From positions 1 to 64,000 of the IMG/VR virus record IMGVR_UViG_3300045988_108506: a stretch of 64,000 nt of DNA; one strand, 5' to 3'. Under the pieces are notes generated by a model, which was not told the DNA's origin, did no database searches, and saw nothing but the letters and a program-made list of their open reading frames with translations. Positions 4,923 through 60,181 of this stretch are shown one piece after another; the stretch's first letter is position 1; each line of letters opens with the position of its first letter. The position numbers were made by a program, and so were the translations under genes. The stretch comes from a virus.

Positions 4923-5177
4923 ATGACAGAGAATAGTATAGACGTAAATATCGTACCTGTAAAGAATGGTATGAAACGTGTTGTGGTATCATATTACCAT
5001 TATTCACGCAAGGAGAAAGATCGCATGAGTTCCCAAACGGATTACGTTTGGGAAACAAAGAATGAAGAAATGTTTAAATACTTTGAGGCCAGGAGGACAA
5101 AAGTATTTTATAGTCAGATTCGTGCCATGTGTAGATTCTATGGCAAGAAAAATGTACGTAAATACAAAAAGTTATGA
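4923..5177 (+). CDS. hypothetical protein (84 aa)
   Basis: Six-frame ORF. Confidence 0.5.
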   Translation: MTENSIDVNIVPVKNGMKRVVVSYYHYSRKEKDRMSSQTDYVWETKNEEMFKYFEARRTKVFYSQIRAMCRFYGKKNVRKYKKL

Positions 5178-5983
5178 TATTAAAAACGACAACCAACGAG
5201 TTTTGTTTCATTAACGTAAGTTTCTACGAAACAATAGCAGATCCTCGTCATTTCTTTGAACAGGATTATGAAGAGATGCCAGAATATGAGGAGGAATCGG
5301 ATTTTGATTTTGATTCTTATTACAATAAGTTTATTCCTTTTGTACAGGAATGGGCGAATGAGGTAAGTGAACGCCTTTACGGATATGGCGTGAATAGTAT
5401 AAAGGTAACATCGGTCGGATATCCGAAAGAATATAATTATGGTACTGATTGGATGAACGTAGAGGTAGAGTTTTGTGATGAATGGAGGCAAAAGATGTTA
5501 TCTAACATTAGTAAGATTGTCAATGATGATAAATGCAAGAAGTATGCGGAGACTAATTACCGGTCGGTATCAGGATACATCTTTTTAGGGCCTGAAGATT
5601 TAAAGGAATTTGAAAAGGAAATAATAGAAAGAAAGTCGGATTCCGGATATGATGTAACAATATTATTAAATATGTATCTAACTTTGGCTTTTGTAAAAGA
5701 ATTTGGATTTAAAGCCGGAGAAGCATGGAGTGAAATAACAGAATATGCTTACGGATGTTTATCGTATTCCGATTTTGCAACAACAGAGATGCTTATACCG
5801 GGAGGTTCGGAGCATTTATTCAAAGACATTTACACGGCAAAGGCCGACGAATTATATCATCATGTCCTGGATAAATTCGGATGGGCGTGGCGTGATCCGA
5901 AATATAAGTCAGAAACAGAATTATGCGCGATGCTAAAGTGGGCAAAAGAAAAAGGCTTGACCATTGAAGAGTTAAGTATTTAA
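5174..5983 (+). CDS. hypothetical acidic protein (269 aa)
   Basis: Six-frame ORF. ATGA start/stop overlap with the upstream gene. Confidence 0.65.
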   Translation: MILKTTTNEFCFINVSFYETIADPRHFFEQDYEEMPEYEEESDFDFDSYYNKFIPFVQEWANEVSERLYGYGVNSIKVTSVGYPKEYNYGTDWMNVEVEFCDEWRQKMLSNISKIVNDDKCKKYAETNYRSVSGYIFLGPEDLKEFEKEIIERKSDSGYDVTILLNMYLTLAFVKEFGFKAGEAWSEITEYAYGCLSYSDFATTEMLIPGGSEHLFKDIYTAKADELYHHVLDKFGWAWRDPKYKSETELCAMLKWAKEKGLTIEELSI

Positions 5984-6010
5984 TTGTTAAACATAAGGCA
6001 GTAGTGGTGC

Positions 6011-6295
6011 GTGAGTATAGGTGCTGCCGTTAAAATATTTTATAAGATGAAAAAAGAAGAGATTCAAACTATTTTATACACAATCAAAGAAGGAGACAGT
6101 ATTAAAATCAAAGTACAAGACAAAAGTGAAGAGATAAGACTGCGGGATCATGTAAGAAGAGTACAGAAATACGGATACAGGTTTTGTTTGTCTCATTTAC
6201 ATGATGGAATTTTCTATCTGGAGAAGTTGAAAGAAGGGGATAAGGATAAATACTATAGAGTAATAAACAGAGGAAATGGAAAGACCGGAGTATAA
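6011..6295 (+). CDS. hypothetical protein (94 aa)
   Basis: Six-frame ORF. Confidence 0.5.
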   Translation: MSIGAAVKIFYKMKKEEIQTILYTIKEGDSIKIKVQDKSEEIRLRDHVRRVQKYGYRFCLSHLHDGIFYLEKLKEGDKDKYYRVINRGNGKTGV

Positions 6296-6569
6296 TAAGC
6301 TACGCAAAATGGCTAAGACTACTCCAGGTCTGATAGTGGACGAGGTGCAAAACATGATGCGTGTATCGCTATACGATAATGGGGAACTTAAGAAGGTGGT
6401 AGTAGTAATGAAATGCGATTCTTTTTTACAGTCAAAAAGTAACATAGAAAAGATAATGTTATTATCATCTTCTATAGAAGATCGAAAAAACAAAGAAAAA
6501 AATAAAACAAAATCAGAAAATGAACAGAATAACAAAAATAAGAGAAGAAATAGGAGGAAAACAGGTTGA
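6276..6569 (+). CDS. hypothetical protein with a K/N/R-rich basic tail (97 aa)
   Basis: Six-frame ORF. Confidence 0.45.
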   Translation: MERPEYNKLRKMAKTTPGLIVDEVQNMMRVSLYDNGELKKVVVVMKCDSFLQSKSNIEKIMLLSSSIEDRKNKEKNKTKSENEQNNKNKRRNRRKTG

Positions 6570-6903
6570 TTTGACCTTTTACGGGCGCTTTTGCAGCCTT
6601 ATCGAAGGTGATAGGAAGATAATACTAAGGGCAATAAAAAACGGTCGTAAAAAAGGCGTAATCGGGGCCATTCAGCCTGGGAGACATGACAGAATTTGGA
6701 CCACATGGTCTATTGCTTTTGATGATCTGAGGGTAGGGGATACGGTAGAGTTCAGTACATCTGGAAAATACAATCCCGGATTTCATGCTACGGAAAAGTA
6801 TGTAGGGTGTGTAGAATGGATAAAAGGGTCGGAATGTGCGATAAAAACCGGTAAGGGAATAGCAGTAGTATTAATTAAACACATAGAAAGGGTGGTAAAA
6901 TAA
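6520..6903 (+). CDS. hypothetical protein (127 aa)
   Basis: Six-frame ORF. Confidence 0.55.
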   Translation: MNRITKIREEIGGKQVDLTFYGRFCSLIEGDRKIILRAIKNGRKKGVIGAIQPGRHDRIWTTWSIAFDDLRVGDTVEFSTSGKYNPGFHATEKYVGCVEWIKGSECAIKTGKGIAVVLIKHIERVVK

Positions 6904-7184
6904 TGGGGTTGAGAGAATTTGTAGAACTTTTTGACAAGAATGAAGTAAAGAATTTGTTTAATGCATTGTCTTCATGTATAGAATACGTAAGGATAGATTT
7001 GCATGTATTTAATATAGGTGCCTATGTTACGTGCCTGTACAGTAATGATCTTGAATCGCTTTCACAGACAGAAGGTTGTAATGTGAATATGATAATAGAG
7101 GTACCACACTTATTCGAAGCATTCATGGAATACGCTTCACCGGAAATGAAGTTGTATTACGAAAAACTAACAGAGACAGTATAA
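6903..7184 (+). CDS. hypothetical protein (93 aa)
   Basis: Six-frame ORF. Confidence 0.5.
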   Translation: MGLREFVELFDKNEVKNLFNALSSCIEYVRIDLHVFNIGAYVTCLYSNDLESLSQTEGCNVNMIIEVPHLFEAFMEYASPEMKLYYEKLTETV

Positions 7185-21723: not shown

Positions 21724-22047
21724 TTGCCTATCTTTGTGCTATTATCAATCAAAAAAAAATGTAAGAAGATGGGCAGATCAACAGAGTACTACAGGACTCA
21801 TCCCGAAGCCAGGAAGAAAAAGGCTAAAAAGGACAAGGAAATAAATGCCAGACCGGAACAGAAAGCAAAACGCCGGGAACTTGGTCGTAAAAACTACGAA
21901 ACGGACAAGAAAAAGGGCAAGGGCTGGAGGAAAGGCAAGGATTGTTCTCATACCAAGAACGGTCTTAGGTATAAATCAGTAAAAGCTAATAGGGGATCCA
22001 AATCGGATACAAAAGGTGACAAAAATGCAAGAGGATCTGAAAAATAA
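21724..22047 (+). CDS. highly basic lysine-rich protein (107 aa), possibly a histone-like DNA binder
   Basis: More than 35% K/R residues, e.g. KKKAKKDKE...KKKGKGWRKGKD. Confidence 0.5.
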   Translation: MPIFVLLSIKKKCKKMGRSTEYYRTHPEARKKKAKKDKEINARPEQKAKRRELGRKNYETDKKKGKGWRKGKDCSHTKNGLRYKSVKANRGSKSDTKGDKNARGSEK

Positions 22048-23149
22048 AATAGATATAAGAAGGATATTCAAGACCTCTAAACAGGTCATGGAAGAGGCGT
22101 ATGAGAATATCTTGAAATACAGGCGGGGAGAGCTTATCCCCGCTAAAACCGGATACGATTATATTGATGAGGCTTTGCTTGGAGGTATTTTCCCTCAGCA
22201 TGCTATTGCCATAGGAGCCCGGCCATCTGTAGGTAAATCGTATGTGGCCCAAAAGATATTGGAAAATGTGATGAATCCGATGATCAACCCACAAGCAGAA
22301 GATTATTTTCTTGTCAATTGCGAGTTCGAAATGAATCCTCAAGATCTTCTTCTTCGCAGAATGAGTCAGGATATGAAAAAACGGGCTCCTGAAATATTAA
22401 GAAGGCAAGATTCTAATACAGTAGAAGAGATGAGGATGTTTGAAATCCTTCAAGGTGAAATCAGAAATAATATAATATACATCGACGCTCCGTGTACGGT
22501 AAAAGAGTTTGAGGCGGCTGTATATCATATAGCTACTAAGCACAAAGACAAACGTCTTATAATATTTAAAGTCGATCATATTGCTTTGATAAAAAGAATG
22601 GGATTGGATCCTAAGTCGGCTATAGATGATTTGGTGGCGGTTATGAACGAAGCTAAATTAGTATATAAAAACATATTTTTCCTCATCATATCCCAATTCA
22701 ACAGAGAGATAGAAGGAAGGATAAAAAGCCCACAAGAGCAACCTCCGCGTCTTTCTGATTTTTACCAATCTGATACGCTGGGTCAGTTATGTACGTTAAT
22801 GATAGGTTTGCACAATCCTCGTAGGTACGGGCTGGATAAGTATATGATATTTGGGAAAGATTGGTATCAGACTCTTGATAGGTTTAAAACTGAAAACAAA
22901 ACATCATTCAGGACAGCCGGACTTGTGTTTCATCATATACTGAAGGTAAGGCAAGTTAGTATGGAAGAGCTTACTAATACAATCCACCCAGAGATACTGC
23001 CGGGATATGGATGGATGTACGGGGAGGGCGGGACGAAGTTCGTGAACCCCAACCAGCCGCCGACGCCGCCCAAGCTCTATACTGTGGAAGACGTTACGGA
23101 CAATCAGGAACAAGAACAAGAGACAAAAGAAGAACAGTCATTGTATTAA
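22016..23149 (+). CDS. dnaB: DnaB-family replicative helicase (RecA-like C-terminal domain only)
   Basis: TGYDYIDEALLGGIFPQHAIAIGARPSVGKS matches the DnaB TGfxdLD...GGL...iiaARPsMGKT (Walker A) block. The N-terminal primase-interaction domain is absent. Confidence 0.7.
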   Translation: MTKMQEDLKNKIDIRRIFKTSKQVMEEAYENILKYRRGELIPAKTGYDYIDEALLGGIFPQHAIAIGARPSVGKSYVAQKILENVMNPMINPQAEDYFLVNCEFEMNPQDLLLRRMSQDMKKRAPEILRRQDSNTVEEMRMFEILQGEIRNNIIYIDAPCTVKEFEAAVYHIATKHKDKRLIIFKVDHIALIKRMGLDPKSAIDDLVAVMNEAKLVYKNIFFLIISQFNREIEGRIKSPQEQPPRLSDFYQSDTLGQLCTLMIGLHNPRRYGLDKYMIFGKDWYQTLDRFKTENKTSFRTAGLVFHHILKVRQVSMEELTNTIHPEILPGYGWMYGEGGTKFVNPNQPPTPPKLYTVEDVTDNQEQEQETKEEQSLY

Positions 23150-23163
23150 AAAAAATAAGAACC

Positions 23164-23766
23164 ATGAGACTGACAGTAGAAGAAAACGAATACCTGATAA
23201 GTAAGTTCCTTTTGGTTCTTACTGAGTTTGCAGGAGATGAAAGAGAGATGTTTTTAATCAACTCCATACATGATAAGGCGGTGGCGGATATGAATTATCG
23301 TCTTCCGTCTTTAATAAGCAGAGAACGTAAAAGACGAGTCATTGAGCTCCTTAAAGAAGGAACCAGAATAATCAAGGACTTTTCCGGATATGCAGGTGAT
23401 ATGGGTATGATTAACGAATACGATCGTTTAAAGAAAGAAATAGGAACCGTCCAAGACCAGCTTGGTGACGTAGAAGGTCAACTTCGGGCAGCAGGAGAAG
23501 TTATTAAAAAAGAACTTGATATGATTGCTGACCGAATCAAAGAAGACCTCCTCGACCGAGAACTGGCTAAAAGTAATGCCGAGGCCGAAAGAAAAGCCAA
23601 AGTAGATCCGAGATACGAAGTAGCTTTAGGTGATTACAAGGAGATGCTGGAAGTGATTTTTACAACCAGAAACAAGTATTCTACGGTAGATTCTGTACAT
23701 GACGATCTTCGACAGTCGGTATCTACCGGTAGAAATTCGATTATTAAAGAAGGGTACAACAGTTAA
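23164..23766 (+). CDS. hypothetical coiled-coil protein (200 aa; start trimmed from the track ORF 23011)
   Basis: The track ORF overlaps the helicase gene by 138 nt. The in-frame Met at 23164 follows the helicase stop. Confidence 0.5.
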   Translation: MRLTVEENEYLISKFLLVLTEFAGDEREMFLINSIHDKAVADMNYRLPSLISRERKRRVIELLKEGTRIIKDFSGYAGDMGMINEYDRLKKEIGTVQDQLGDVEGQLRAAGEVIKKELDMIADRIKEDLLDRELAKSNAEAERKAKVDPRYEVALGDYKEMLEVIFTTRNKYSTVDSVHDDLRQSVSTGRNSIIKEGYNS

Positions 23767-23981: not shown

Positions 23982-24695
23982 ATGTACATCAATTTCAGAC
24001 AACTTGCAGCATCAGACATGACTCCTAATGATCTTGCCAATCTTCTTGCCATAAGACAGAAGGATACGGTTATGATCGAAGCCATGCCGGAAGAAGATGC
24101 TGGGAGGTATATAGAGCTTGGCCTGGTTGAGAAATTAAAATCAGGCGTGATGAGATTGACCAACAAAGGAACGTCTTTTGTGAATTATATAGAGACACCG
24201 GAGATGACAGACGAGGTTCTGGAAACGTTGAAGATTATGATAGGAATGTACGAATCATATTCAAAAGACATAGGTGTCAGCAGAAAAGAAGCGGAATCCA
24301 GATTGTGTTGGTTTATGGGTAACACTTCATTCAAGAAAGAGGTCATACTTCAGGTAACGGAATCTTATATAGCAGAGTCAGGAGATTATACAATGAGCTT
24401 ATGTAACTTCATATGGAAACCGCCTTCTCAGGCTTTTTCAGTTCATATGAACCTTAAAAATTCAAAGCTCTTTGACTTAATAGCTGAAAAATTTAAGATC
24501 GCTACCGAGCCTTATTTGGAGTCTAAGAAGAATAAGGAAATGGATTGGTTGTTTGCCGTATCTAAATTGCCTACGCCGCCAGCTAAAGGCAATCCGGATT
24601 ATTTGTTTACCGGAAGTTCTGAAACAGACAAAGAGCGATTGAAAAACATAAAAACGTATTTATTTAACAAAATTAGAAAGCAATGGAAAAAGTAA
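23982..24695 (+). CDS. hypothetical protein (237 aa)
   Basis: Six-frame ORF. Confidence 0.55.
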   Translation: MYINFRQLAASDMTPNDLANLLAIRQKDTVMIEAMPEEDAGRYIELGLVEKLKSGVMRLTNKGTSFVNYIETPEMTDEVLETLKIMIGMYESYSKDIGVSRKEAESRLCWFMGNTSFKKEVILQVTESYIAESGDYTMSLCNFIWKPPSQAFSVHMNLKNSKLFDLIAEKFKIATEPYLESKKNKEMDWLFAVSKLPTPPAKGNPDYLFTGSSETDKERLKNIKTYLFNKIRKQWKK

Positions 24696-24934
24696 GAATC
24701 AGAAAGATAATAGAGGATATAATTATTACTCAGTTTCTTAATTCGGAAATAGATATAGTTCATGAAGAAGATGTGACGTTTAAAGAACTTGGATTAGATT
24801 CTGTTGATCAAATTGAACTGGAAGTGATGGTGGAACAAAAATTCAATATTGTTATTATTGATTATGATATGGAGACCATCAAAGATATGACTGATCTTGT
24901 TTACAAAATAATAACAGAAGGGTATGGGAAGTGA
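24683..24934 (+). CDS. hypothetical protein (83 aa)
   Basis: Six-frame ORF. Confidence 0.45.
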   Translation: MEKVRIRKIIEDIIITQFLNSEIDIVHEEDVTFKELGLDSVDQIELEVMVEQKFNIVIIDYDMETIKDMTDLVYKIITEGYGK

Positions 24935-25412
24935 TATAATTTTATGCATGGCTTTAATAGCATCATTTGCTTTTGTTATACAGTTTTTGTTGTCGATATT
25001 AGGATCTGATCTGGATACGGATATTGACAATGCTTCTGATTTAAGCATGTCTTTATCAGACATCATATCATTTAAGGGTATAACACATTTTATTCTTGGA
25101 TATAGCTGGACTACCTACTTTTCGGGTTCTCATTTAGTAGGGGTTGTGATAGGGTCGTTTTTCTTTATCGTTTTGTTTTACGTATATAAGTTACTTCTTA
25201 AGTTAAAGCAAGAAATGGTGTACGAATGTCCGGAAGATTTAAATGGCAGAGAGGTGGAGATAGTATTTAGATCAGGGAAGAATCATTATATGGTAAATAT
25301 TTCGAAAAATGGAAGACAGGAGCAAATGAGAGTAAGATGTTTGTCTGGAAAAACTTACAAAAACGGTGACAAGGTGAATATAAAATACGAAGAAGGAGAA
25401 CTAAGTATCTAA
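24924..25412 (+). CDS. NfeD-like membrane protein (short YuaF type: N-terminal TM helices plus C-terminal OB-fold beta-barrel)
   Basis: Two or three TM helices, then GREVEIVFRSGKNHYMVNISKNGRQEQMRVRCLSGKTYKNGDKVNIKYEEGE. Encoded immediately upstream of the flotillin gene, as in bacterial nfeD-flotillin operons. Confidence 0.5.
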   Translation: MGSDIILCMALIASFAFVIQFLLSILGSDLDTDIDNASDLSMSLSDIISFKGITHFILGYSWTTYFSGSHLVGVVIGSFFFIVLFYVYKLLLKLKQEMVYECPEDLNGREVEIVFRSGKNHYMVNISKNGRQEQMRVRCLSGKTYKNGDKVNIKYEEGELSI

Positions 25413-25444
25413 TTTTTTTTATCAACAATTAAATTTTAAAAGTT

Positions 25445-27145
25445 ATGACAACAATCATGTACGTGTCAGCTATCTTAGCTGTAGTGATTATTTTGACAAT
25501 CATCGGAGTCTTATCAAGGTATCGTAGATGTAAGCCTAATCAGGTCTTGGTCGTTTATGGTAAGACAGGTGGGGAAAAGAAATCGGCGAAATTATATCAT
25601 GGTGGAGCGGCATTTGTCTTGCCTATTATTCAAAGCTATGATGTTTTGTCAATGGAGCCTATGCAAATAGATTGCAAGCTTACCGGTGCTTTGTCATCTC
25701 AGAATATTAGAGTAGATGTTCCTACGACTATTACAGTAGCTATCAGTACAAATCCAGAGATCATGCAAAATGCGGCAGAAAGACTTTTGGGAATGGATAC
25801 CGAATCTACTGAAAATCTTATTACGGACATCGTTTACGGTCAGATGCGTTTGATTATTGCTGAAATGACAATCGAAAAACTTAATTCTGACAGGGATGAG
25901 TTTTTGGATAAGGCAAGAAAGAACATTGATAACGAGCTTAACAAGTTAGGTCTTTACCTCCTGAACATCAACATCAGTGACATTAGAGACGAAGCCGGTT
26001 ATATTATGAACCTTGGTAAGGAGGCTGAAAGTAGGGCTCTAAACGAAGCACAGGCTAATATCGAAGAACAGGAGAAGCTGGGGGCTATTAAGATTGCTGT
26101 ACAGCAGAAGGAGAAAGAAACGGCTGTGGCTAATACCAAAAAAGAACAAGAGATTCAAATTGCTTGTACTGAAAAAGAAAAGGAAACAATAGTAGCTGAA
26201 ACGAAGAAAGAAAAAGAAATAGCTTTGGCTTTAACCGATAAAGAAAAACAGATTGGTGTAGCTCAAGCAGATAGAGATAGGGCTGCGGTTATCGCAAAAA
26301 CTTTAACCGACAAGGAATCGGCGATCGTAAGATCTAAGGCAGAACTTGAAGTAAATAAAGCCGAGGCTGAAAGGATGGAAGAAGTCGGAAAGAACAAGGC
26401 TGAAGCTGACAAGGAAGCAGCTATAGCAATACAAAACTCTGAAGCTCAGATTAAGAAGGCTGAGGCTGAGAAAAATGCGTCTATAGGATACAACAATGCC
26501 CAGAAGGAGGTTGCTGTGTCAGTATCAGAATTGCAGATTATCAAAGCTCAATCAGAAAAGAAGGCCGGAGAAGAAAAAGTTAAATCGGAAGCGGCTGTAA
26601 AAACAGCAAAAGAGCTTGCAGACAAAGAAGTGGAAGAAGCTAAGGCTAAGAAAGTTCAGGCTGCGCTTAAGGCTGAAAAGATTGTGCCGGCTGAAACCCA
26701 GAAGGAAGAGGCTATCTTGCAAGCTGATGCCGAGGCCGAGAAGATCAAACGCCGGGCTGAGGCTGAGGCATCAGCACATTTGGCAAAAGCTGAGGCAGAG
26801 GCAAAAGCTATTCAGATGAAGCTGGAGGCAGAAGCCGAAGGTAAGAAAAAGTCGTTAATGGCAGAAGCCGACGGATTTAAGGCTATGGTGGAAGCAGCAG
26901 AATCCAATCCTCAGATCGCCATCCAGTACAAGATGGTTAATCAGTGGAAAGAAATTGCCGGAGAACAGGTTAAGGCATTTGAGCACATTAACCTCGGAAA
27001 TATCACGGTATTTGACGGCGGTCAGAACAGTACCGGTAATTTCCTTAACAATGTTGTCAAGACCGTCGCTCCGGCATTGGGAGTCATTGATCAGCTTCCG
27101 ATTGCAGATACTTTAAAGAAATTAAAAGGAGATGACAAAAAATAA
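25445..27145 (+). CDS. flotillin-like SPFH/band-7 protein (YqiK/FloA type) with a long Ala/Glu-rich coiled-coil tail
   Basis: N-terminal TM helix. YRRCKPNQVLVVYGK...HGGAAFVLPIIQSYDVLSMEPMQID matches the SPFH N-terminus. The C-terminal 300 aa are EA/AEAE flotillin-type repeats. Confidence 0.7.
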   Translation: MTTIMYVSAILAVVIILTIIGVLSRYRRCKPNQVLVVYGKTGGEKKSAKLYHGGAAFVLPIIQSYDVLSMEPMQIDCKLTGALSSQNIRVDVPTTITVAISTNPEIMQNAAERLLGMDTESTENLITDIVYGQMRLIIAEMTIEKLNSDRDEFLDKARKNIDNELNKLGLYLLNINISDIRDEAGYIMNLGKEAESRALNEAQANIEEQEKLGAIKIAVQQKEKETAVANTKKEQEIQIACTEKEKETIVAETKKEKEIALALTDKEKQIGVAQADRDRAAVIAKTLTDKESAIVRSKAELEVNKAEAERMEEVGKNKAEADKEAAIAIQNSEAQIKKAEAEKNASIGYNNAQKEVAVSVSELQIIKAQSEKKAGEEKVKSEAAVKTAKELADKEVEEAKAKKVQAALKAEKIVPAETQKEEAILQADAEAEKIKRRAEAEASAHLAKAEAEAKAIQMKLEAEAEGKKKSLMAEADGFKAMVEAAESNPQIAIQYKMVNQWKEIAGEQVKAFEHINLGNITVFDGGQNSTGNFLNNVVKTVAPALGVIDQLPIADTLKKLKGDDKK

Positions 27146-27284
27146 ATACAATGGCCCAAGGTTACACTTGGGCCTAATTGAAGAAATAAAAGCAGCATTC
27201 ATAGATTTCCTGCCTGCGGGAACAGTGATTTTAAGTGCTTTACTAATTACGATATTTTTAACATGGATTTTGGACAAGATTTAG
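27132..27284 (+). CDS. candidate small single-TM peptide (~50 aa) overlapping the flotillin stop codon
   Basis: ATG at 27132 within AAAAGGAGATG. Hydrophobic LPAGTVILSALLITIFLTWIL segment. Speculative. Confidence 0.2.
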   Translation: MTKNKYNGPRLHLGLIEEIKAAFIDFLPAGTVILSALLITIFLTWILDKI

Positions 27285-27308
27285 AACCAGAAGAACTGAC
27301 CGGGCATT

Positions 27309-27668
27309 ATGATCAGTGTTATGGAATTGATTTTGAAACAGAAGAAGAGGAGGATGAAGAATATGACGGATGAGGAATTTGCATTAGATAATAAGAAAAA
27401 AGTTGTTGTAAGAAAAAGAATATCCTATTTAAGCAAAGGGGATAAAGTGTGGATCGTGTCTTCCGACGGCTACCTGCTACACACGGACGTCGTTCGGCGG
27501 GATCGGGGCCGATCTTATGTGGATATAGACGGGATACTGTATTGGAAGCGAGGATTAGATGGCAAGCATCGTAATCGTAATAACTACATGCAGTTTGCCA
27601 TGACGCCGGAGGACGGTAAGAAGTATGTCGTATATTACCCGGAAGGATTTAAAGACAATGACTTATGA
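27309..27668 (+). CDS. hypothetical protein (119 aa)
   Basis: Six-frame ORF. Confidence 0.5.
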   Translation: MISVMELILKQKKRRMKNMTDEEFALDNKKKVVVRKRISYLSKGDKVWIVSSDGYLLHTDVVRRDRGRSYVDIDGILYWKRGLDGKHRNRNNYMQFAMTPEDGKKYVVYYPEGFKDNDL

Positions 27669-45607: not shown

Positions 45608-45831
45608 AACCTGTCCCCTCCTAATCCTGAATTGATGCTAACATACTTAACACGGACATCATTTCCACGTCCAAGCTGTCCCCAGCCGGGCGATGGCGTT
45701 CCCTTGGCCGGAGCAGGGACAGCCCTAAGCCGAGACCAGTCCTGCTTTTGTCTCATGGCGTCAGCCTCTTTGTAATACCGGTTACACAGTTCTTGATCTT
45801 CGTAACCAACGTAATCTTCCTTATTTTCCAT
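45604..45831 (-). CDS. hypothetical protein (75 aa)
   Basis: Six-frame ORF. Confidence 0.45.
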   Translation of the reverse strand: MENKEDYVGYEDQELCNRYYKEADAMRQKQDWSRLRAVPAPAKGTPSPGWGQLGRGNDVRVKYVSINSGLGGDRL

Positions 45832-45957
45832 ATAGAATAGTTTTTCAACAAATGTACGACATTCATGAATTAATTAGATTTAAAATAAAACAATATGAAT
45901 TAAAATAAAAACCCGATACGTTAAAATCGCATCGGGCCTGGTATTGAAAAAATAGGT

Positions 45958-46140
45958 TCAGATCTTGGGTAAAGACTCGATCCAATTTTTAACATCTTTA
46001 TATTTAGGGTCTTTGTCTATTCTATCTCTCAGTTCATGCAATGCTGAGTCCATAACCGTATTCGGTACGCCAATCAACTCTCCTATTAAATACAATGGGG
46101 TTTTATTTGATTTAGATTCGTGTGCCATATTCATATCCAA
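45958..46140 (-). CDS. hypothetical protein (60 aa)
   Basis: Six-frame ORF. Confidence 0.35.
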   Translation of the reverse strand: MDMNMAHESKSNKTPLYLIGELIGVPNTVMDSALHELRDRIDKDPKYKDVKNWIESLPKI

Positions 46141-46300
46141 AAAAAGTTATGTGAAACAAACCGGCCACGGGTATTCTATTGCCCGCCGACCGGTATAACA
46201 TTTTTTTTATTCCTTTTTTTCCAAACGGGAAAAACGGGAATGCGGGAATCATATTTTTTACTATGGCTCCCGCACCACCGGAAGGACCTGGGCCTGGATC

Positions 46301-46594
46301 TCAGGTCAGATCCTTCCAGTTTATTTTTTCGCCGAGGTAATCTTGCACGGCAAGCCATCTTATAAAGGCTACTCCTTCGGGAGCATCCGGATCATCCAAA
46401 TACATTAACGTAGCTTTCACCAACTCGTTCTCACATTTGAAGACCTTCGGAAAACCATCCGAATAGTACATTGCAAAGACATATTGGACATCGCCCCATG
46501 TCGCTTTATCCGGCTTCTTCGCTCCGCACTTTTCAAAAATATCTTTTATTTCCGGCTGCTTCCAGATCCTCTTGGATCCATCGACGTTGACCAT
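46301..46594 (-). CDS. hypothetical protein (97 aa)
   Basis: Six-frame ORF. Confidence 0.5.
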   Translation of the reverse strand: MVNVDGSKRIWKQPEIKDIFEKCGAKKPDKATWGDVQYVFAMYYSDGFPKVFKCENELVKATLMYLDDPDAPEGVAFIRWLAVQDYLGEKINWKDLT

Positions 46595-46622
46595 CTTCTT
46601 TACCGCCTCATCAGCAAGAGCA

Positions 46623-47387
46623 TTAGAAAAATGGTAGCCGTAAGTATCTACATATTTCTGATAAGCTGGATCCTCTGCGTCTGCTCCTCAATAAGAACGA
46701 CCTCTCGCAATCTGATAAGTTGAACCATTCTCTGTATATCCCTTTGATATCAAATCTTGCATGAAGCTCGCTCTCTATATCTTTATTCACATAAGCTATT
46801 AATGTTAAGTTATCTTCTACAATAGACAACCCAGATAGCCTTCTTTTTACATCAGAGCTTTTACCTATTTTATAAAAACCATTATTATTATTTCTTATTA
46901 TATATGTAAAATATTTTATACATTTTTTATTATACCTATCGATAGATCTATGTATTATATCTAATACCCGATCGTCATTTTTAATATTACAACAATCAAA
47001 TATATCATAAATAAAATCTTTAAATAAAGATCTATCACACTTCATATAGATGATACACAGAATCGATTTGGGGAATAAATAATAGTCATGCCTAAATACA
47101 TGACTATTATTATCTATTATTTGTTCTCCATTATTATCATATCTATATGATATATAATCTATTCCATCCTTAAAATTAAAAGATGATATTACATCCTTAA
47201 TCCAATGTTTAAAATCATACTTACATTCTAACAATTTATGAACATGTTTTGCGTCAATCATTTTTCTGTCGTTTATTAACACAAAAGGAATACAAGTATT
47301 ATCCATAATAAAAAAATAGGCCCAAAAGAGAATGTCAGATCCCACTATGACAAACCCTAATGAGCCAAAAATATCTTTCAACATCAA
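46623..47387 (-). CDS. KilA-N/Bro-N-like N-terminal domain plus C-terminal T5orf172 (GIY-YIG-related) domain protein
   Basis: The C-terminal YIIRNNNNGFYKIGKSSDVKRRLSGL fits the T5orf172 signature (Y.l....g.yKIG.t.....Rl..l). Sits in a conspicuously AT-rich segment. Confidence 0.5.
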   Translation of the reverse strand: MMLKDIFGSLGFVIVGSDILFWAYFFIMDNTCIPFVLINDRKMIDAKHVHKLLECKYDFKHWIKDVISSFNFKDGIDYISYRYDNNGEQIIDNNSHVFRHDYYLFPKSILCIIYMKCDRSLFKDFIYDIFDCCNIKNDDRVLDIIHRSIDRYNKKCIKYFTYIIRNNNNGFYKIGKSSDVKRRLSGLSIVEDNLTLIAYVNKDIESELHARFDIKGIYREWFNLSDCERSFLLRSRRRGSSLSEICRYLRLPFF

Positions 47388-47556
47388 ACAACCAGAGGTG
47401 GGATCTCGTTGTTCATTGTTTCTGGAACAAAGATAGGAACAGGATTTTAAATAACAAATATTTTAATACTTTTTAAAACAAACCAGGGCCCGCATCACTG
47501 CGAACCCTGATCTACACTAATCTAAACTAATACCATGAAAAACTTAAATCTAAAAA

Positions 47557-47790
47557 CTAAAGAACACACAAATGTATGAAAATGTATGGTTTTCGCAAAG
47601 AATCTGTATCCTGTTCTTTTGTGTGATTCAAGACATGGGATATAGTTCTGATACTTAATCCGGTTTGATTTTGTATCAGATTATAAATATAGGATTTTGA
47701 AACTACAGTTCTTAATTGACCTAAATCATTCATAATGTTTTTATACATAAGATGAATGCTGTTATTACGTTTGATGGTACTGATTCTCAT
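47557..47790 (-). CDS. doubtful small ORF (77 aa) in the AT-rich gap
   Basis: Six-frame ORF only. Confidence 0.2.
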   Translation of the reverse strand: MRISTIKRNNSIHLMYKNIMNDLGQLRTVVSKSYIYNLIQNQTGLSIRTISHVLNHTKEQDTDSLRKPYIFIHLCVL

Positions 47791-48015
47791 TTCCTACCGT
47801 TATTAGTTACGTTCTGTTCTTACTTTTCCCTATTTTCTATAATCCCTTCCTGAAACTAATATTGCAAACTTAATAAAAATAATTCATAAACAATGAAAAT
47901 CTAACTTTTCTTGTATGTTATTGATATACGTGCATATATGAGAAAAGTGAGACTTTCACAAGCCTCACTTCCCAAATCGTAATTATGAAAAAACTATATT
48001 ATATATATACAAAAA

Positions 48016-57244: not shown

Positions 57245-60181
57245 TTATTCCCTATTTACACTATTCAACAACTTCATCAACTTGCCGTTTTTATTCAAAG
57301 ACGTAGGTAAATCACCCCTTTCTTTTGCCGCCACCATATCCTTAATCTCTTCTGTTATGGCTGCCACAACAAAATCAACTATTTTTTTCTGAGGCGCAAC
57401 AGCAAGTTCTTTAGACACATTATCCGCAAACCATACATTAGGAGTATCAAACGAATCTATTAACTCAGGTTTACCATTCTCCATAAGATAAAGCCTTGTC
57501 TCATATCCATAACCGTAACTTGTCTTAGGATCATAACCTTCAACCTTTACACCAAGCTTTCCACTGTTATCCAATATATCTTTAGCTGCATTAAGAAGCC
57601 AAACCTTTTGTTCTGGCATATCATCTAAATTATTACCAGATTCATTTATCATATCTGATAACACTTTCATCATTGAAGATACAGAAGCATAAGCGGGTGA
57701 TATATCTGAATTTTCAAGCATCTTCGGATACCACATATTGGTATCACTTCCAAATGTAGGTCTTATAATACCACTTTCATATCCACCTATATCGACGGAA
57801 GGAGTATTAATACCAGGATCTATGCCATTATTTATCAACTCTGTTTCAGATACCTCAACAATATCTATTTCCTCTCTTTCACCAGTATGATTAGCAACCA
57901 AACTGTAAGTCTTCTCTCCATTGTCGGCTATTCCCGATTCTGTCAAAGAAAATGATTCAATAGTTGCCGATGATGATTTAGATTTACCAACAGGATGCTC
58001 TGCCATTTTTTTAGTAAATAGATCCCTGAGAACACCCATCTCTCTATAACCAGCCTCCTTGGAGGTTAATTTGGTTGAATACGTTACTGTGTTAGGTGAA
58101 TACAGTTCGAGATATTCTTTACGTATCTCATTTATACCATCATCTTGAACCTTAGTTATTTGATTGGCTATATTAATATCGCTTACTACATCACCTCCAA
58201 CGCTCTCCATTCCGCTAATAGAATACAGTGTATTAAAAAACACCTTTTCTTCACCATCCGAGAAACTATTTTTTACATCATCGTATTTTTTTAAGAAATA
58301 CCTGCCACTTTTGCTATCCCTCTCAAATACTTTAGATAAATCAATGCCATCATTTTTCACCCTCTTTCTTATAGTAGCTATATCAGCAGGCGAGAATCCT
58401 TTTCCATAATATCTTACTCCAGATTCTACATCGCCGACTGTACCTCTATTTTTTCTTAAAATATCATTAAGGGATAACGCTGTAGCATAGGCTATATATT
58501 CTTCGGGTTTACCTCCTTCCTTCTGCGCGATCGCATTTGCTATTTCAGATACAATATTATCATAAATCTTATTCTCCTTCTTAATTCTATCATTCTCTAT
58601 ATCCATCTTGTCTACAGCGCTATTAAGCTGCATATAAGCATCTGTGGCAGCTTTTCTCTCTGCCACAGGTAGCTTGTCAAACATATCATTAGAGAGACCT
58701 CCATTGTCCTTTATATACTTAAGAAGTTTTTCTTCATCCATAAGATACTTGTATCCTGATGTTTCATCCGTCATATTTCTTGATATGGCAGCTTGAATAT
58801 TTTTCATGTTTTCAGCACCAAGGGCTGTAGATAGTCTACTTCCGGATGTTACAAGATCTGTATATGCCTTATTAAACTTCTTATGAGTTTCTTCTGATAT
58901 GCTAATATTTTTAGTTTCAATAGGATTAGCTGAAATAGTTCCACCAGAGTTTGTGCCAACGCCCACCTGCATGGCTCGGCTTCCAGCTCTGCCGCCTGCC
59001 GCTCCTGCACCAGAGGACATAAGTTTTGCTATTCTGGCTTCATCCTTATTCTTACCATATTCAAATTCTATCTTCCATTTTTCGAAATTCAAATTAGCTA
59101 ATCTTTCCCTCTGATTATATTCTTTGGTTTTCCAGTAAAGCTCGTCGGCTTTGATTATGAAAGACAAATTATCATAAGCATATGAAGCAGCAGCATTATT
59201 AATAAAATTATTTTCAATAACCTTCATCGCTACAAGATACGGATCGTAAGCCCTTTCATCCATTCTGCTAAATTCAGATTTCATGGAAGCTATTTCAGAT
59301 TTGGCTCTCTTTATTTCATTTTCAACCATTTCTTTCTTTGCAGGATCAGAACCCAAACCGGAAAGATCGGCAGTAAGAGCATCAACATACCTCTGCTTAT
59401 CACTTATCTGCTTATTCATAAAACCAAGAACAGAATCATACGAATATAAAGAGGGATTAGAGTCTACCATGTAAATAGCCTCCACCTGCATCTGCTGCCT
59501 TGCTTTATCTGATAACCCTGACAATGCAAAAGAAGCTATCTGTTCAGGAGTAAGCATATCCTTAGTTACTTCTTGTACTGCCCCGGTAGGATGACCATCC
59601 TTGTCAAGAATAGGAATCTGAACTTTAGCTCCTTTATGAAGCTTGCTTATAAAATCTATCCTATCTTTTAATTCCTTATTATAATCAGTATAAGGAGTAT
59701 ATTGAAGAGGAGCAAGACGGGAACCAGCCTTTCCATCATTCACCCATTCATTATACGGCTTTAAAGCCGCATAAGCATTCGCAGCAGAATAAAGTTCTGG
59801 ATTATTTATTTGTAAATCAGATAGCATTTTATGCATTCTCCTGCCTTCTTTTGTGCCGGCAATCGCGTTAATGACCGTATCATCCAACACCGAACTGATC
59901 TCTCCTTGTATGGCTCTCGTAACACCATCAGAAGAAAGATCCACGCCTTTGAATTTTTGATTGATGTTAGCAATCACACCTGACATCTTATCTTCCATAT
60001 AAGCGCGGGCTTCAGGCTTATCTATCTCTTGACCCATAAGATAATCTACCTGGGTATAGATCTTTTCACGAGCAGCATCAACCTTCTGCTGTTTGTACAT
60101 CATGACGTCCTTAACAAGATCTATGTTGTAAGGACTAACATACGGGGCATATTGCCTTAAAATACTATATTGTGAAGCCAT
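57245..60181 (-). CDS. large structural-candidate protein (978 aa); function unknown
   Basis: Uninterrupted ORF. Stop is 4 nt from the downstream giant gene start (operon). Confidence 0.8.
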   Translation of the reverse strand: MASQYSILRQYAPYVSPYNIDLVKDVMMYKQQKVDAAREKIYTQVDYLMGQEIDKPEARAYMEDKMSGVIANINQKFKGVDLSSDGVTRAIQGEISSVLDDTVINAIAGTKEGRRMHKMLSDLQINNPELYSAANAYAALKPYNEWVNDGKAGSRLAPLQYTPYTDYNKELKDRIDFISKLHKGAKVQIPILDKDGHPTGAVQEVTKDMLTPEQIASFALSGLSDKARQQMQVEAIYMVDSNPSLYSYDSVLGFMNKQISDKQRYVDALTADLSGLGSDPAKKEMVENEIKRAKSEIASMKSEFSRMDERAYDPYLVAMKVIENNFINNAAASYAYDNLSFIIKADELYWKTKEYNQRERLANLNFEKWKIEFEYGKNKDEARIAKLMSSGAGAAGGRAGSRAMQVGVGTNSGGTISANPIETKNISISEETHKKFNKAYTDLVTSGSRLSTALGAENMKNIQAAISRNMTDETSGYKYLMDEEKLLKYIKDNGGLSNDMFDKLPVAERKAATDAYMQLNSAVDKMDIENDRIKKENKIYDNIVSEIANAIAQKEGGKPEEYIAYATALSLNDILRKNRGTVGDVESGVRYYGKGFSPADIATIRKRVKNDGIDLSKVFERDSKSGRYFLKKYDDVKNSFSDGEEKVFFNTLYSISGMESVGGDVVSDINIANQITKVQDDGINEIRKEYLELYSPNTVTYSTKLTSKEAGYREMGVLRDLFTKKMAEHPVGKSKSSSATIESFSLTESGIADNGEKTYSLVANHTGEREEIDIVEVSETELINNGIDPGINTPSVDIGGYESGIIRPTFGSDTNMWYPKMLENSDISPAYASVSSMMKVLSDMINESGNNLDDMPEQKVWLLNAAKDILDNSGKLGVKVEGYDPKTSYGYGYETRLYLMENGKPELIDSFDTPNVWFADNVSKELAVAPQKKIVDFVVAAITEEIKDMVAAKERGDLPTSLNKNGKLMKLLNSVNRE

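Follow-up and report, generated by a model that had tools for sequence, protein, structure and literature searches.

The 64,000-nucleotide stretch of phage DNA analyzed here (positions 1 to 64,000 of IMG/VR virus record IMGVR_UViG_3300045988_108506, referred to below as the window) encodes a flotillin of 566 amino acids, directly preceded by the gene for a membrane protein of 162 amino acids, here called its partner. With moderate confidence we propose that the two genes are a Bacteroidales-type membrane-scaffold operon that was captured once by an ancestor of this phage, has been kept working within the replication gene block, and supplies the phage with a host-type scaffold of its own. The flotillin annotation of the phage gene is already known. 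What is new is the likely NfeD-like identity of the partner, the captured Bacteroidales operon, the selection data, and the natural deletion and length variants. The features of the two genes are as follows.

24924 to 25412, plus strand: gene for the 162-amino-acid NfeD-like partner, three transmembrane (TM) helices and a C-terminal OB barrel (open reading frame, ORF; AlphaFold2 model)
24924 to 25004, plus strand: partner TM helix 1, residues 1 to 27 (model helix 2 to 27; hydrophobicity scan)
25005 to 25070, plus strand: partner acidic loop with the DxDxD...SFKG motif, residues 28 to 49 (family alignment; low model confidence)
25071 to 25205, plus strand: partner TM helical hairpin with the conserved HFxxG, residues 50 to 94 (model helices 50 to 67 and 70 to 94)
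25251 to 25409, plus strand: partner OB-fold beta-barrel domain, NfeD-C-like, residues 110 to 162 (AlphaFold2 model)
25445 to 27145, plus strand: gene for the 566-amino-acid flotillin (Pfam Band_7 and Flot)
25445 to 25528, plus strand: flotillin N-terminal membrane anchor, residues 1 to 28 (hydropathy)
25532 to 26077, plus strand: SPFH/Band_7 domain, residues 30 to 211 (PF01145)
26078 to 26791, plus strand: Ala/Glu/Lys-rich helical (coiled-coil) region, residues 212 to 449 (composition)
26792 to 27121, plus strand: flotillin C-terminal (Flot) domain, residues 450 to 559 (PF15975)

The 566-amino-acid flotillin

The initial annotation of this region, made from the sequence alone, placed three ORFs on the plus strand (24924 to 25412, 25445 to 27145, and 27132 to 27284), and all three were recovered at these coordinates. 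It described the product of the second as a flotillin with a TM anchor and an SPFH domain and proposed searches with PF01145 and a flotillin C-terminal model as a check. Both models matched above their gathering scores: Band_7 (PF01145) at residues 30 to 211 (E = 7.6e-26, 91.7 bits versus a gathering score of 23.6) and Flot (PF15975) at residues 450 to 559 (E = 9.4e-10, 39.1 bits versus 27). Residues 1 to 28, the predicted anchor, were strongly hydrophobic, with mean Kyte-Doolittle hydropathy of up to 2.83. Residues 212 to 449 consisted of 21% Ala, 17% Glu, and 17% Lys, with one Pro. The coiled coil had been described as Ala/Glu-rich and about 300 amino acids long. An Ala/Glu/Lys-rich helical region is present, but it is about 240 amino acids long because the stretch with this composition comprises residues 212 to 449. 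The features described for the module are far beyond chance.

The closest solved structures by sequence were the human flotillin-2/1 cage chains 9BQ2 and 9L3G (E = 8.6e-23 to 1e-18), with the best match (E = 8.6e-23) spanning residues 30 to 305, which takes in the whole SPFH domain and reaches into the first part of the coiled coil. With the NCBIfam equivalog model for FloT (NF058507), the phage protein scored 146 bits and did not reach the cut-off of 700. By these profile matches, the 566-amino-acid protein is a flotillin, yet no equivalog of Bacillus subtilis FloT.

A conserved Bacteroidales operon and the origin of the phage pair

Flotillins 62 to 67% identical to the phage protein were found in 80 genomes of Bacteroides, Phocaeicola, Parabacteroides, Prevotella, and related genera in a survey that scanned one genome per species. 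The loci were located with a flotillin alignment because the partner has no stretch conserved enough for such a search, and patterns from the partner alignment failed. At 79 of the 80 loci, a partner-family ORF ended about 40 nucleotides upstream of the flotillin on the same strand. The lone exception had only 50 bp of contig upstream. Therefore, the partner-flotillin pair is a conserved, largely unannotated chromosomal operon of Bacteroidales, which is in accord with the earlier proposal that the phage pair matches a conserved bacterial two-gene operon. A bacterial metagenomic contig that also carries tRNA synthetase and glycerol-3-phosphate dehydrogenase genes (L002) has the same arrangement: its flotillin, listed at 50% BLASTP identity, is preceded by a 165-amino-acid ORF without a Pfam match that is 40% identical to the phage partner (E = 1e-39). 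Within the flotillin of this contig (P0158, 659 amino acids; L002 positions 5001 to 6980), about 100 amino acids across the C-terminal part of the SPFH domain are duplicated exactly, either an assembly artifact or a true tandem duplication.

The Bacteroidales operon (e.g., loci L007 to L086) and the phage pair agree in their two genes and in the order and spacing of these, and the Bacteroidales partners, 31 to 42% identical to the phage partner in a region-trimmed alignment, keep all residues that are invariant in the family. The phage pair differs from the bacterial operon in forming a separate deep branch, in the 33 residues by which its coiled coil exceeds that of all Bacteroidales orthologues, in having an acyl carrier protein (ACP) gene upstream and a 50-amino-acid ORF downstream, and in being surrounded by replication genes rather than housekeeping genes.

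The neighbor-joining tree of each protein placed the window lineage as sister to another phage lineage (L003/L004), the two sharing one long branch outside all the genera sampled. The two phage lineages were 82% identical in the flotillin and 62% identical in the partner. Identity between phage and bacterium was about 0.65 for the flotillin, versus about 0.83 between bacterial families, and about 0.37 for the partner, versus about 0.48 between bacterial families. Divergence of the flotillin from its Bacteroidales orthologues was unevenly distributed: the SPFH domain was about 78% identical, the C-terminal domain 80 to 88%, and the coiled coil 46 to 64%. The trees and the identities between phage and bacterium fit one old capture of the pair as a unit followed by divergence, or an unsampled donor.

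Some Phocaeicola/Bacteroidaceae genomes have two paralogous partner-flotillin operons (L062 and L071 in one metagenome-assembled genome and L028 and L067 in one metagenome-assembled genome; also L065 and L074). The divergent L065-type paralogue was the one that grouped closest to the phage copies when the partner tree was built, possibly through long-branch attraction.

Conservation and selection in the phage

In IMG/VR, 171 contigs encode a relative of the flotillin, the best 80 of the 171 being at least 96% identical, and over 2,400 sequences belong to the main protein cluster. A survey of co-occurrence in related phages, as had been suggested initially, found the partner and the flotillin both intact at 83 of 83 phage loci examined, with the partner directly upstream in each.

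Selection was evaluated from the ratio of nonsynonymous to synonymous substitution rates (dN/dS) in within-lineage pairs because between-lineage dS was saturated for most genes. The ratio was 0.036 for the flotillin (71 pairs) and 0.032 for the partner (64 pairs), the pairs not being independent because the window was their common reference. Neighboring genes gave 0.052 (PD-(D/E)XK nuclease) and 0.038 (ORF237). Between the two phage lineages, synonymous sites of the flotillin and the partner were saturated, and dN was 0.12 and 0.27, respectively. The flotillin and the partner are thus under strong purifying selection, like the adjacent replication genes.

The 162-amino-acid partner and its relationship to NfeD

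The partner had been described initially as a protein with N-terminal TM helices and a C-terminal OB-like beta-barrel, and the structural model agreed. AlphaFold2 run on a 6-sequence alignment gave a predicted local distance difference test (pLDDT) score of 53.7, and this model was discarded for one based on 69 sequences with a mean pLDDT of 85.6. The 69-sequence model has helices at residues 2 to 27, 50 to 67, and 70 to 94, followed by a beta domain of five to six strands at residues 110 to 161. The pLDDT was above 90 in helices 50 to 67 and 70 to 94 and in the beta domain and below 50 at residues 30 to 42. Because this model is confident, the predicted TM-plus-OB architecture is accepted as real.

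The family to which the partner belongs is less readily named. The 162-amino-acid protein had zero matches among Pfam, PHROG, NCBIfam, and PADLOC models, and its word-indexed homologues were all close phage relatives. When 1.84 billion representative proteins were searched with a profile, 231 matches were retrieved at an E value of 1e-3 or lower, mostly 155 to 185 amino acids long and matched over their full length. At the core of the family is an invariant motif, DxDxD...SFKGxxHFxxG, which the phage protein keeps; in the family alignment D33/D35, S49, K51, and G52 are invariant or nearly so, and H55, F56, G59, and G77 are conserved. The motif (window 25005 to 25100, partner residues 28 to 59) sits between TM helices 1 and 2, and cation binding is one possibility for it. 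A viral homologue that is 35% identical over its full length carries the UniProt name 'NfeD-like C-terminal domain-containing protein'. One protein considered as a long protease-containing NfeD that might bridge the families (P0242, 448 amino acids) was dismissed as a DPP-IV fusion or a gene-call artifact.

We consider it likely that the partner is homologous to NfeD, with no family threshold passed. The NfeD model PF01957, which the initial annotation had proposed as a check, gave no match to the phage protein and matched 2 of 70 family members and also P0304, all below threshold (the best, P0304, at 25.1 bits versus 29.1). This failure does not exclude membership in the NfeD family because a YuaF-like protein (P0310) used for calibration is itself under the threshold, at 18.8 bits, so that PF01957 is insensitive to NfeD proteins that accompany flotillins. 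When the partner-family profile was compared with YuaF (2K14), hmmsearch gave an E value of 0.19 with an alignment across the whole domain. With hhalign, comparison of the partner family with a YuaF-like sequence gave a probability of 69% (E = 4.3e-5, 64 columns), the YuaF side of this comparison being shallow with just 6 homologues retrieved. Foldseek searches of the partner model against the PDB gave no match at an E value of 0.001 or lower, and the top 50 hits were generic OB folds, headed by eIF1A, uS17, and proteasomal OB folds, with no NfeD among them.

Alternatively, the partner could be analogous rather than homologous to NfeD, its small membrane proteins with a generic OB barrel forming a family unrelated to NfeD that happens to accompany the flotillin in Bacteroidales. 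The missing PF01957 match, the E value against YuaF, and the Foldseek list are all in line with this explanation, and the invariant DxDxD...SFKGxxHFxxG motif was defined within the partner family. However, the hhalign alignment covers the whole domain at 69% probability, YuaF itself falls under the Pfam threshold, and the gene order and TM-plus-OB arrangement match those of nfeD-SPFH operons, as these are described in PMC13086221. An unrelated origin therefore seems rather unlikely.

Natural deletion and length variants

In several database 'homologues', the TM part of the partner is fused in frame to the C terminus of the flotillin. One such fusion, P0017, is found in two phage contigs that are syntenic elsewhere and come from independent samples (L167 and L168; 32 kb at a coverage of 54 and 76 kb) and corresponds to a deletion of about 1.63 kb, window positions approximately 25254 to 26884. 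Further fusion junctions were seen among database proteins P0025, P0028, P0031, P0033, and P0169. The module probably helps the phage yet is not strictly essential for its propagation because rare variants without most of the module reach dominance in some samples.

Metagenomic variants also have a coiled coil shortened by at least five distinct in-frame deletions, of 74, 85, 88 to 89, 90, and 99 amino acids. These variants are singletons, versus over 2,400 intact sequences in the cluster. Tandem Repeats Finder detected no real array in the coiled coil, in which short direct repeats are instead dispersed. One repeat family (D1) has two copies here:

26458 to 26470, plus strand: left copy of the 13-nucleotide direct repeat GGCTGAGGCTGAG, which codes for AEAE
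26755 to 26767, plus strand: right copy of the same repeat

The two copies of GGCTGAGGCTGAG are perfect and lie 297 nucleotides apart, which is exactly the 99-amino-acid deletion of variant P0149. By its length, this deletion matches recombination between the two repeats.

Phage, gene neighborhood, and adjacent ORFs

The window shares 96.7% identity, over the 5 kb compared, with csAssE-Sib (OR575929.1), a human gut phage of 151 kb. The GenBank labels for csAssE-Sib are 'flotillin family protein' for the 566-amino-acid gene (WOZ57345.1), 'transmembrane protein' for the 162-amino-acid gene, and 'acyl carrier protein' for the gene upstream. The Joint Genome Institute too names the 566-amino-acid product flotillin. 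The half of the window read from the minus strand carries genes for giant virion proteins (about 2,100 amino acids), and the annotation of OR575929.1 includes crAss-type 'muzzle' and 'ring' proteins, BACON-type carbohydrate-binding proteins, and a diversity-generating retroelement, with no integrase annotated. Because of these genes and the integrase-free annotation, the source of the window is assigned on gene content to the crAss-like phages (a lineage of about 150 kb), and its host is probably a member of the Bacteroidales. The retroelement of OR575929.1 (variable repeat, template repeat, and initiation of mutagenic homing sequence, VR/TR/IMH, plus reverse transcriptase) is annotated beside a tail-fiber gene, and the same genome has two TnpB-family genes, a Ro60-related protein, and several tRNAs (45751 to 47816, 58986 to 60125, 64190 to 65413, and 73091 to 74725).

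The module lies inside a co-directional block of replication and nucleotide-metabolism genes, flanked by a DnaB-like helicase and a primase on one side and a PD-(D/E)XK exonuclease and a helicase on the other. This position and the annotation without an integrase fit the earlier assignment to the early or middle region of a lytic phage. The genes are packed head to tail, with overlaps between ORF237 and the ACP gene and between the ACP and partner genes, a 32-nucleotide gap between partner and flotillin, and a 14-nucleotide overlap between the flotillin and the following ORF. Promoter and terminator consensus scans, made with a tool that has no model of Bacteroidales promoters, performed no better than on shuffled sequence. 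A place for the module in the lysis cassette was ruled out, as some 80 kb separate it from the endolysin cluster of the reference genome. Farther upstream, a 251-amino-acid ORF (window 23011 to 23766) starts within the preceding DnaB-like helicase ORF (22016 to 23149), overlapping it by about 140 nucleotides. The same overlap is annotated in csAssE-Sib, and the real start codon may be farther downstream.

Two further features adjoin the pair:

24683 to 24934, plus strand: acyl carrier protein gene, 83 amino acids (PP-binding Pfam match; overlaps the partner start by 11 nucleotides)
27132 to 27284, plus strand: doubtful or dispensable, phage-specific 50-amino-acid ORF, hydrophobic toward its C terminus (ORF; 14-nucleotide overlap with the flotillin end)

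The 83-amino-acid ACP matched the Pfam PP-binding model (E = 6.8e-6, 26.7 bits versus a cut-off of 20.8) and phrog_5934, and its serine attachment motif LGLDSV is intact in the translation. Every score against the NCBIfam ACP models was under the equivalog cut-off. The ACP keeps its position in the second phage lineage, with just 38% identity between lineages, and no counterpart lies beside the Bacteroidales partner-flotillin operons surveyed. The upstream ACP is phage-side context, outside the captured bacterial operon.

The initial annotation also noted a possible single-TM peptide at the flotillin stop codon. The ORF, the overlap, and the hydrophobic stretch exist, but the data do not support the peptide as a member of the module: 77 of 79 bacterial loci have no small hydrophobic ORF after the flotillin, and at 28 of 83 phage loci a 10-bp deletion shifts the frame and cuts the ORF to 34 amino acids, before the hydrophobic segment (e.g., L088, 5688 to 5792). 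Its dN/dS was 0.25 within the lineage and 0.87, nearly neutral, between lineages, which are 34% identical in this ORF. Support for it as a gene is weak, and its product would at most be a peptide that is specific to the phage and dispensable. Downstream of it, and present in both alleles, is a short ORF of 36 amino acids with a highly acidic composition (MDFGQDLEPEELT...EEEEDEEYDG; window 27263 to 27373).

Comparison with known systems

The B. subtilis operon yuaF (NfeD2)-floT (yuaG), for which the structure of the YuaF soluble domain is available (PDB 2K14), is very distant in sequence from the phage pair. QmcA-YbbJ of Escherichia coli and FloA-NfeD of Staphylococcus aureus have the same domain logic as the phage pair, for which a like assembly is predicted; they differ from it in that QmcA resembles stomatins and FloA is a flotillin of short length. 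In QmcA-YbbJ and FloA-NfeD, as summarized in PMC13086221, the SPFH protein and the operon-encoded NfeD form a single membrane-attached oligomeric cage. Human flotillin-1/2 (9BQ2 and 9L3G) differs from the phage protein in being eukaryotic, a hetero-oligomer, acylated rather than TM anchored, and without an NfeD partner.

Among 50,697 phage records, 11 matched the window flotillin. One of the 11, the T5-like Vibrio phage KIT04, encodes a flotillin with 30% identity across half the protein, pointing to an independent acquisition, and unlike the window phage KIT04 has no Flot C-domain match and no NfeD-like neighbor. The genes listed for the Vi01-like phage PhiSH19 include an ACP and an SPFH protein, the latter adjacent to a gene for superinfection exclusion (PMC3220722). 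An SPFH domain (cd03408) is noted in a Crassvirales genus that infects Segatella, in a 2026 preprint. These sequences show that SPFH genes have entered phages repeatedly, in events unrelated to the one in the window; such phage genes are rare but not unprecedented. No demonstrated function of the SPFH proteins of KIT04, PhiSH19, or the Segatella phages was found in the literature. The literature also yielded nothing specific on csAssE-Sib, on flotillin in crAss-like phages, or on Bacteroides flotillin with NfeD, and no functional study was found.

A precedent is the HflK/HflC-FtsH system with phage lambda CII, where the outcome of a phage infection depends on a membrane protease under the control of an SPFH cage. 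That case differs from the present one in that the SPFH proteins are host encoded and the phage acts on FtsH via CIII, and nothing found here ties the window module to FtsH. The HflK/HflC-FtsH/lambda CII precedent is mentioned in a preprint (10.64898/2026.08.21.746148).

Proposed role and alternatives

The mechanism proposed for the phage pair is drawn by homology from the solved SPFH complexes flotillin-1/2, HflK/C, QmcA-YbbJ, and FloA-NfeD. The phage flotillin would anchor in the inner membrane of the host via its N-terminal hydrophobic segment and would oligomerize via the coiled coil and the conserved C-terminal domain into a cage or dome enclosing a patch of membrane. The partner, with three TM helices in that membrane, would contact the flotillin via its OB domain, for which the Lys-rich stretch after partner helix 3 suggests a cytoplasmic location. 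The most likely benefit to the phage would be a membrane-organizing and proteostasis scaffold of its own that keeps the envelope and membrane-protein complexes functional, or reorganized, during a long productive infection.

Several points weigh against the proposed explanation. The deletion variants indicate that the module is not required for propagation. The partner fails the PF01957 gathering score, and Foldseek against the PDB yields solely generic OB folds, none significant. The neighbor-joining trees come without bootstrap or other support values, and all dN/dS pairs share the window as reference. The phage copies are further from each sampled Bacteroidales genus than the genera are from one another, and their function may have shifted after capture. 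The 33-amino-acid insertion in the coiled coil and a partner about 37% identical to that of the host are likewise compatible with neofunctionalization.

In a rival model, the phage flotillin would co-assemble with the flotillin of the host and poison or retarget host cages (e.g., by altering what is accessible to membrane proteases, secretion complexes, or envelope-stress sensors) instead of adding a copy of the host function. The C-terminal Flot domain, which is relevant to oligomerization and 80 to 88% identical to that of the host, is as conserved as between bacterial families, and the SPFH domain is about 78% identical; the coiled coil, with its 33 extra residues and 46 to 64% identity, could make mixed cages defective, and the phage brings its own diverged partner. 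However, conservation of all domains is equally expected of a plain functional copy, and such a dominant-negative role is judged unlikely.

A phage-specific inner-membrane compartment for replication, assembly, or non-lytic persistence, built by the pair, is distinctly unlikely in our judgment. The length of the coiled coil would then set the size of the cage, and the ACP might supply or modify lipid. Long-term non-lytic persistence is typical of crAss-like phages.

Superinfection exclusion or other competition between phages, in which the cage would block DNA entry or membrane steps of rivals, or a membrane-associated defense of the host, is very improbable. The products are predicted from the model and hydropathy to be membrane located, expression from an early or middle block is plausible from the position of the genes, their accessory, dispensable behavior is typical of competition genes, and the SPFH protein of PhiSH19 adjoins a superinfection-exclusion gene (PMC3220722). 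However, neither the partner, the flotillin, nor the peptide matched PADLOC defense models at an E value of 0.1 or lower, the source is a core chromosomal Bacteroidales operon and not a defense-island gene, and dN/dS of about 0.03 is without the diversifying signature common in conflict genes.

Rare deletion variants aside, the idea that the module is carried along without any role for the phage, or stems from host contamination or a chimeric assembly, is effectively refuted by the conservation and selection data: the module is intact at 83 of 83 syntenic phage loci, 171 IMG/VR contigs have a flotillin relative, a second lineage with synonymous sites saturated relative to the window has it as well, dN/dS is about 0.03, and the sequence cannot be contaminating host DNA because it differs by more than 30% from every bacterial copy.

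Implications

SPFH-NfeD operons are widespread in bacteria and poorly understood, and what is probably one of them is found here in a very abundant phage lineage of the human gut. A small protein family without a Pfam model, whose phage copy is annotated solely as 'transmembrane protein', gains a likely NfeD-like identity. The natural deletion variants and the variants in coiled-coil length are ready comparison genotypes. Because selection on the pair is as tight as that on replication genes, a membrane scaffold is implied to help a crAss-like phage measurably. The pair may thus provide a handle both on the role of flotillin in Bacteroidales and on the management of the envelope by crAss-like phages during persistent infection.

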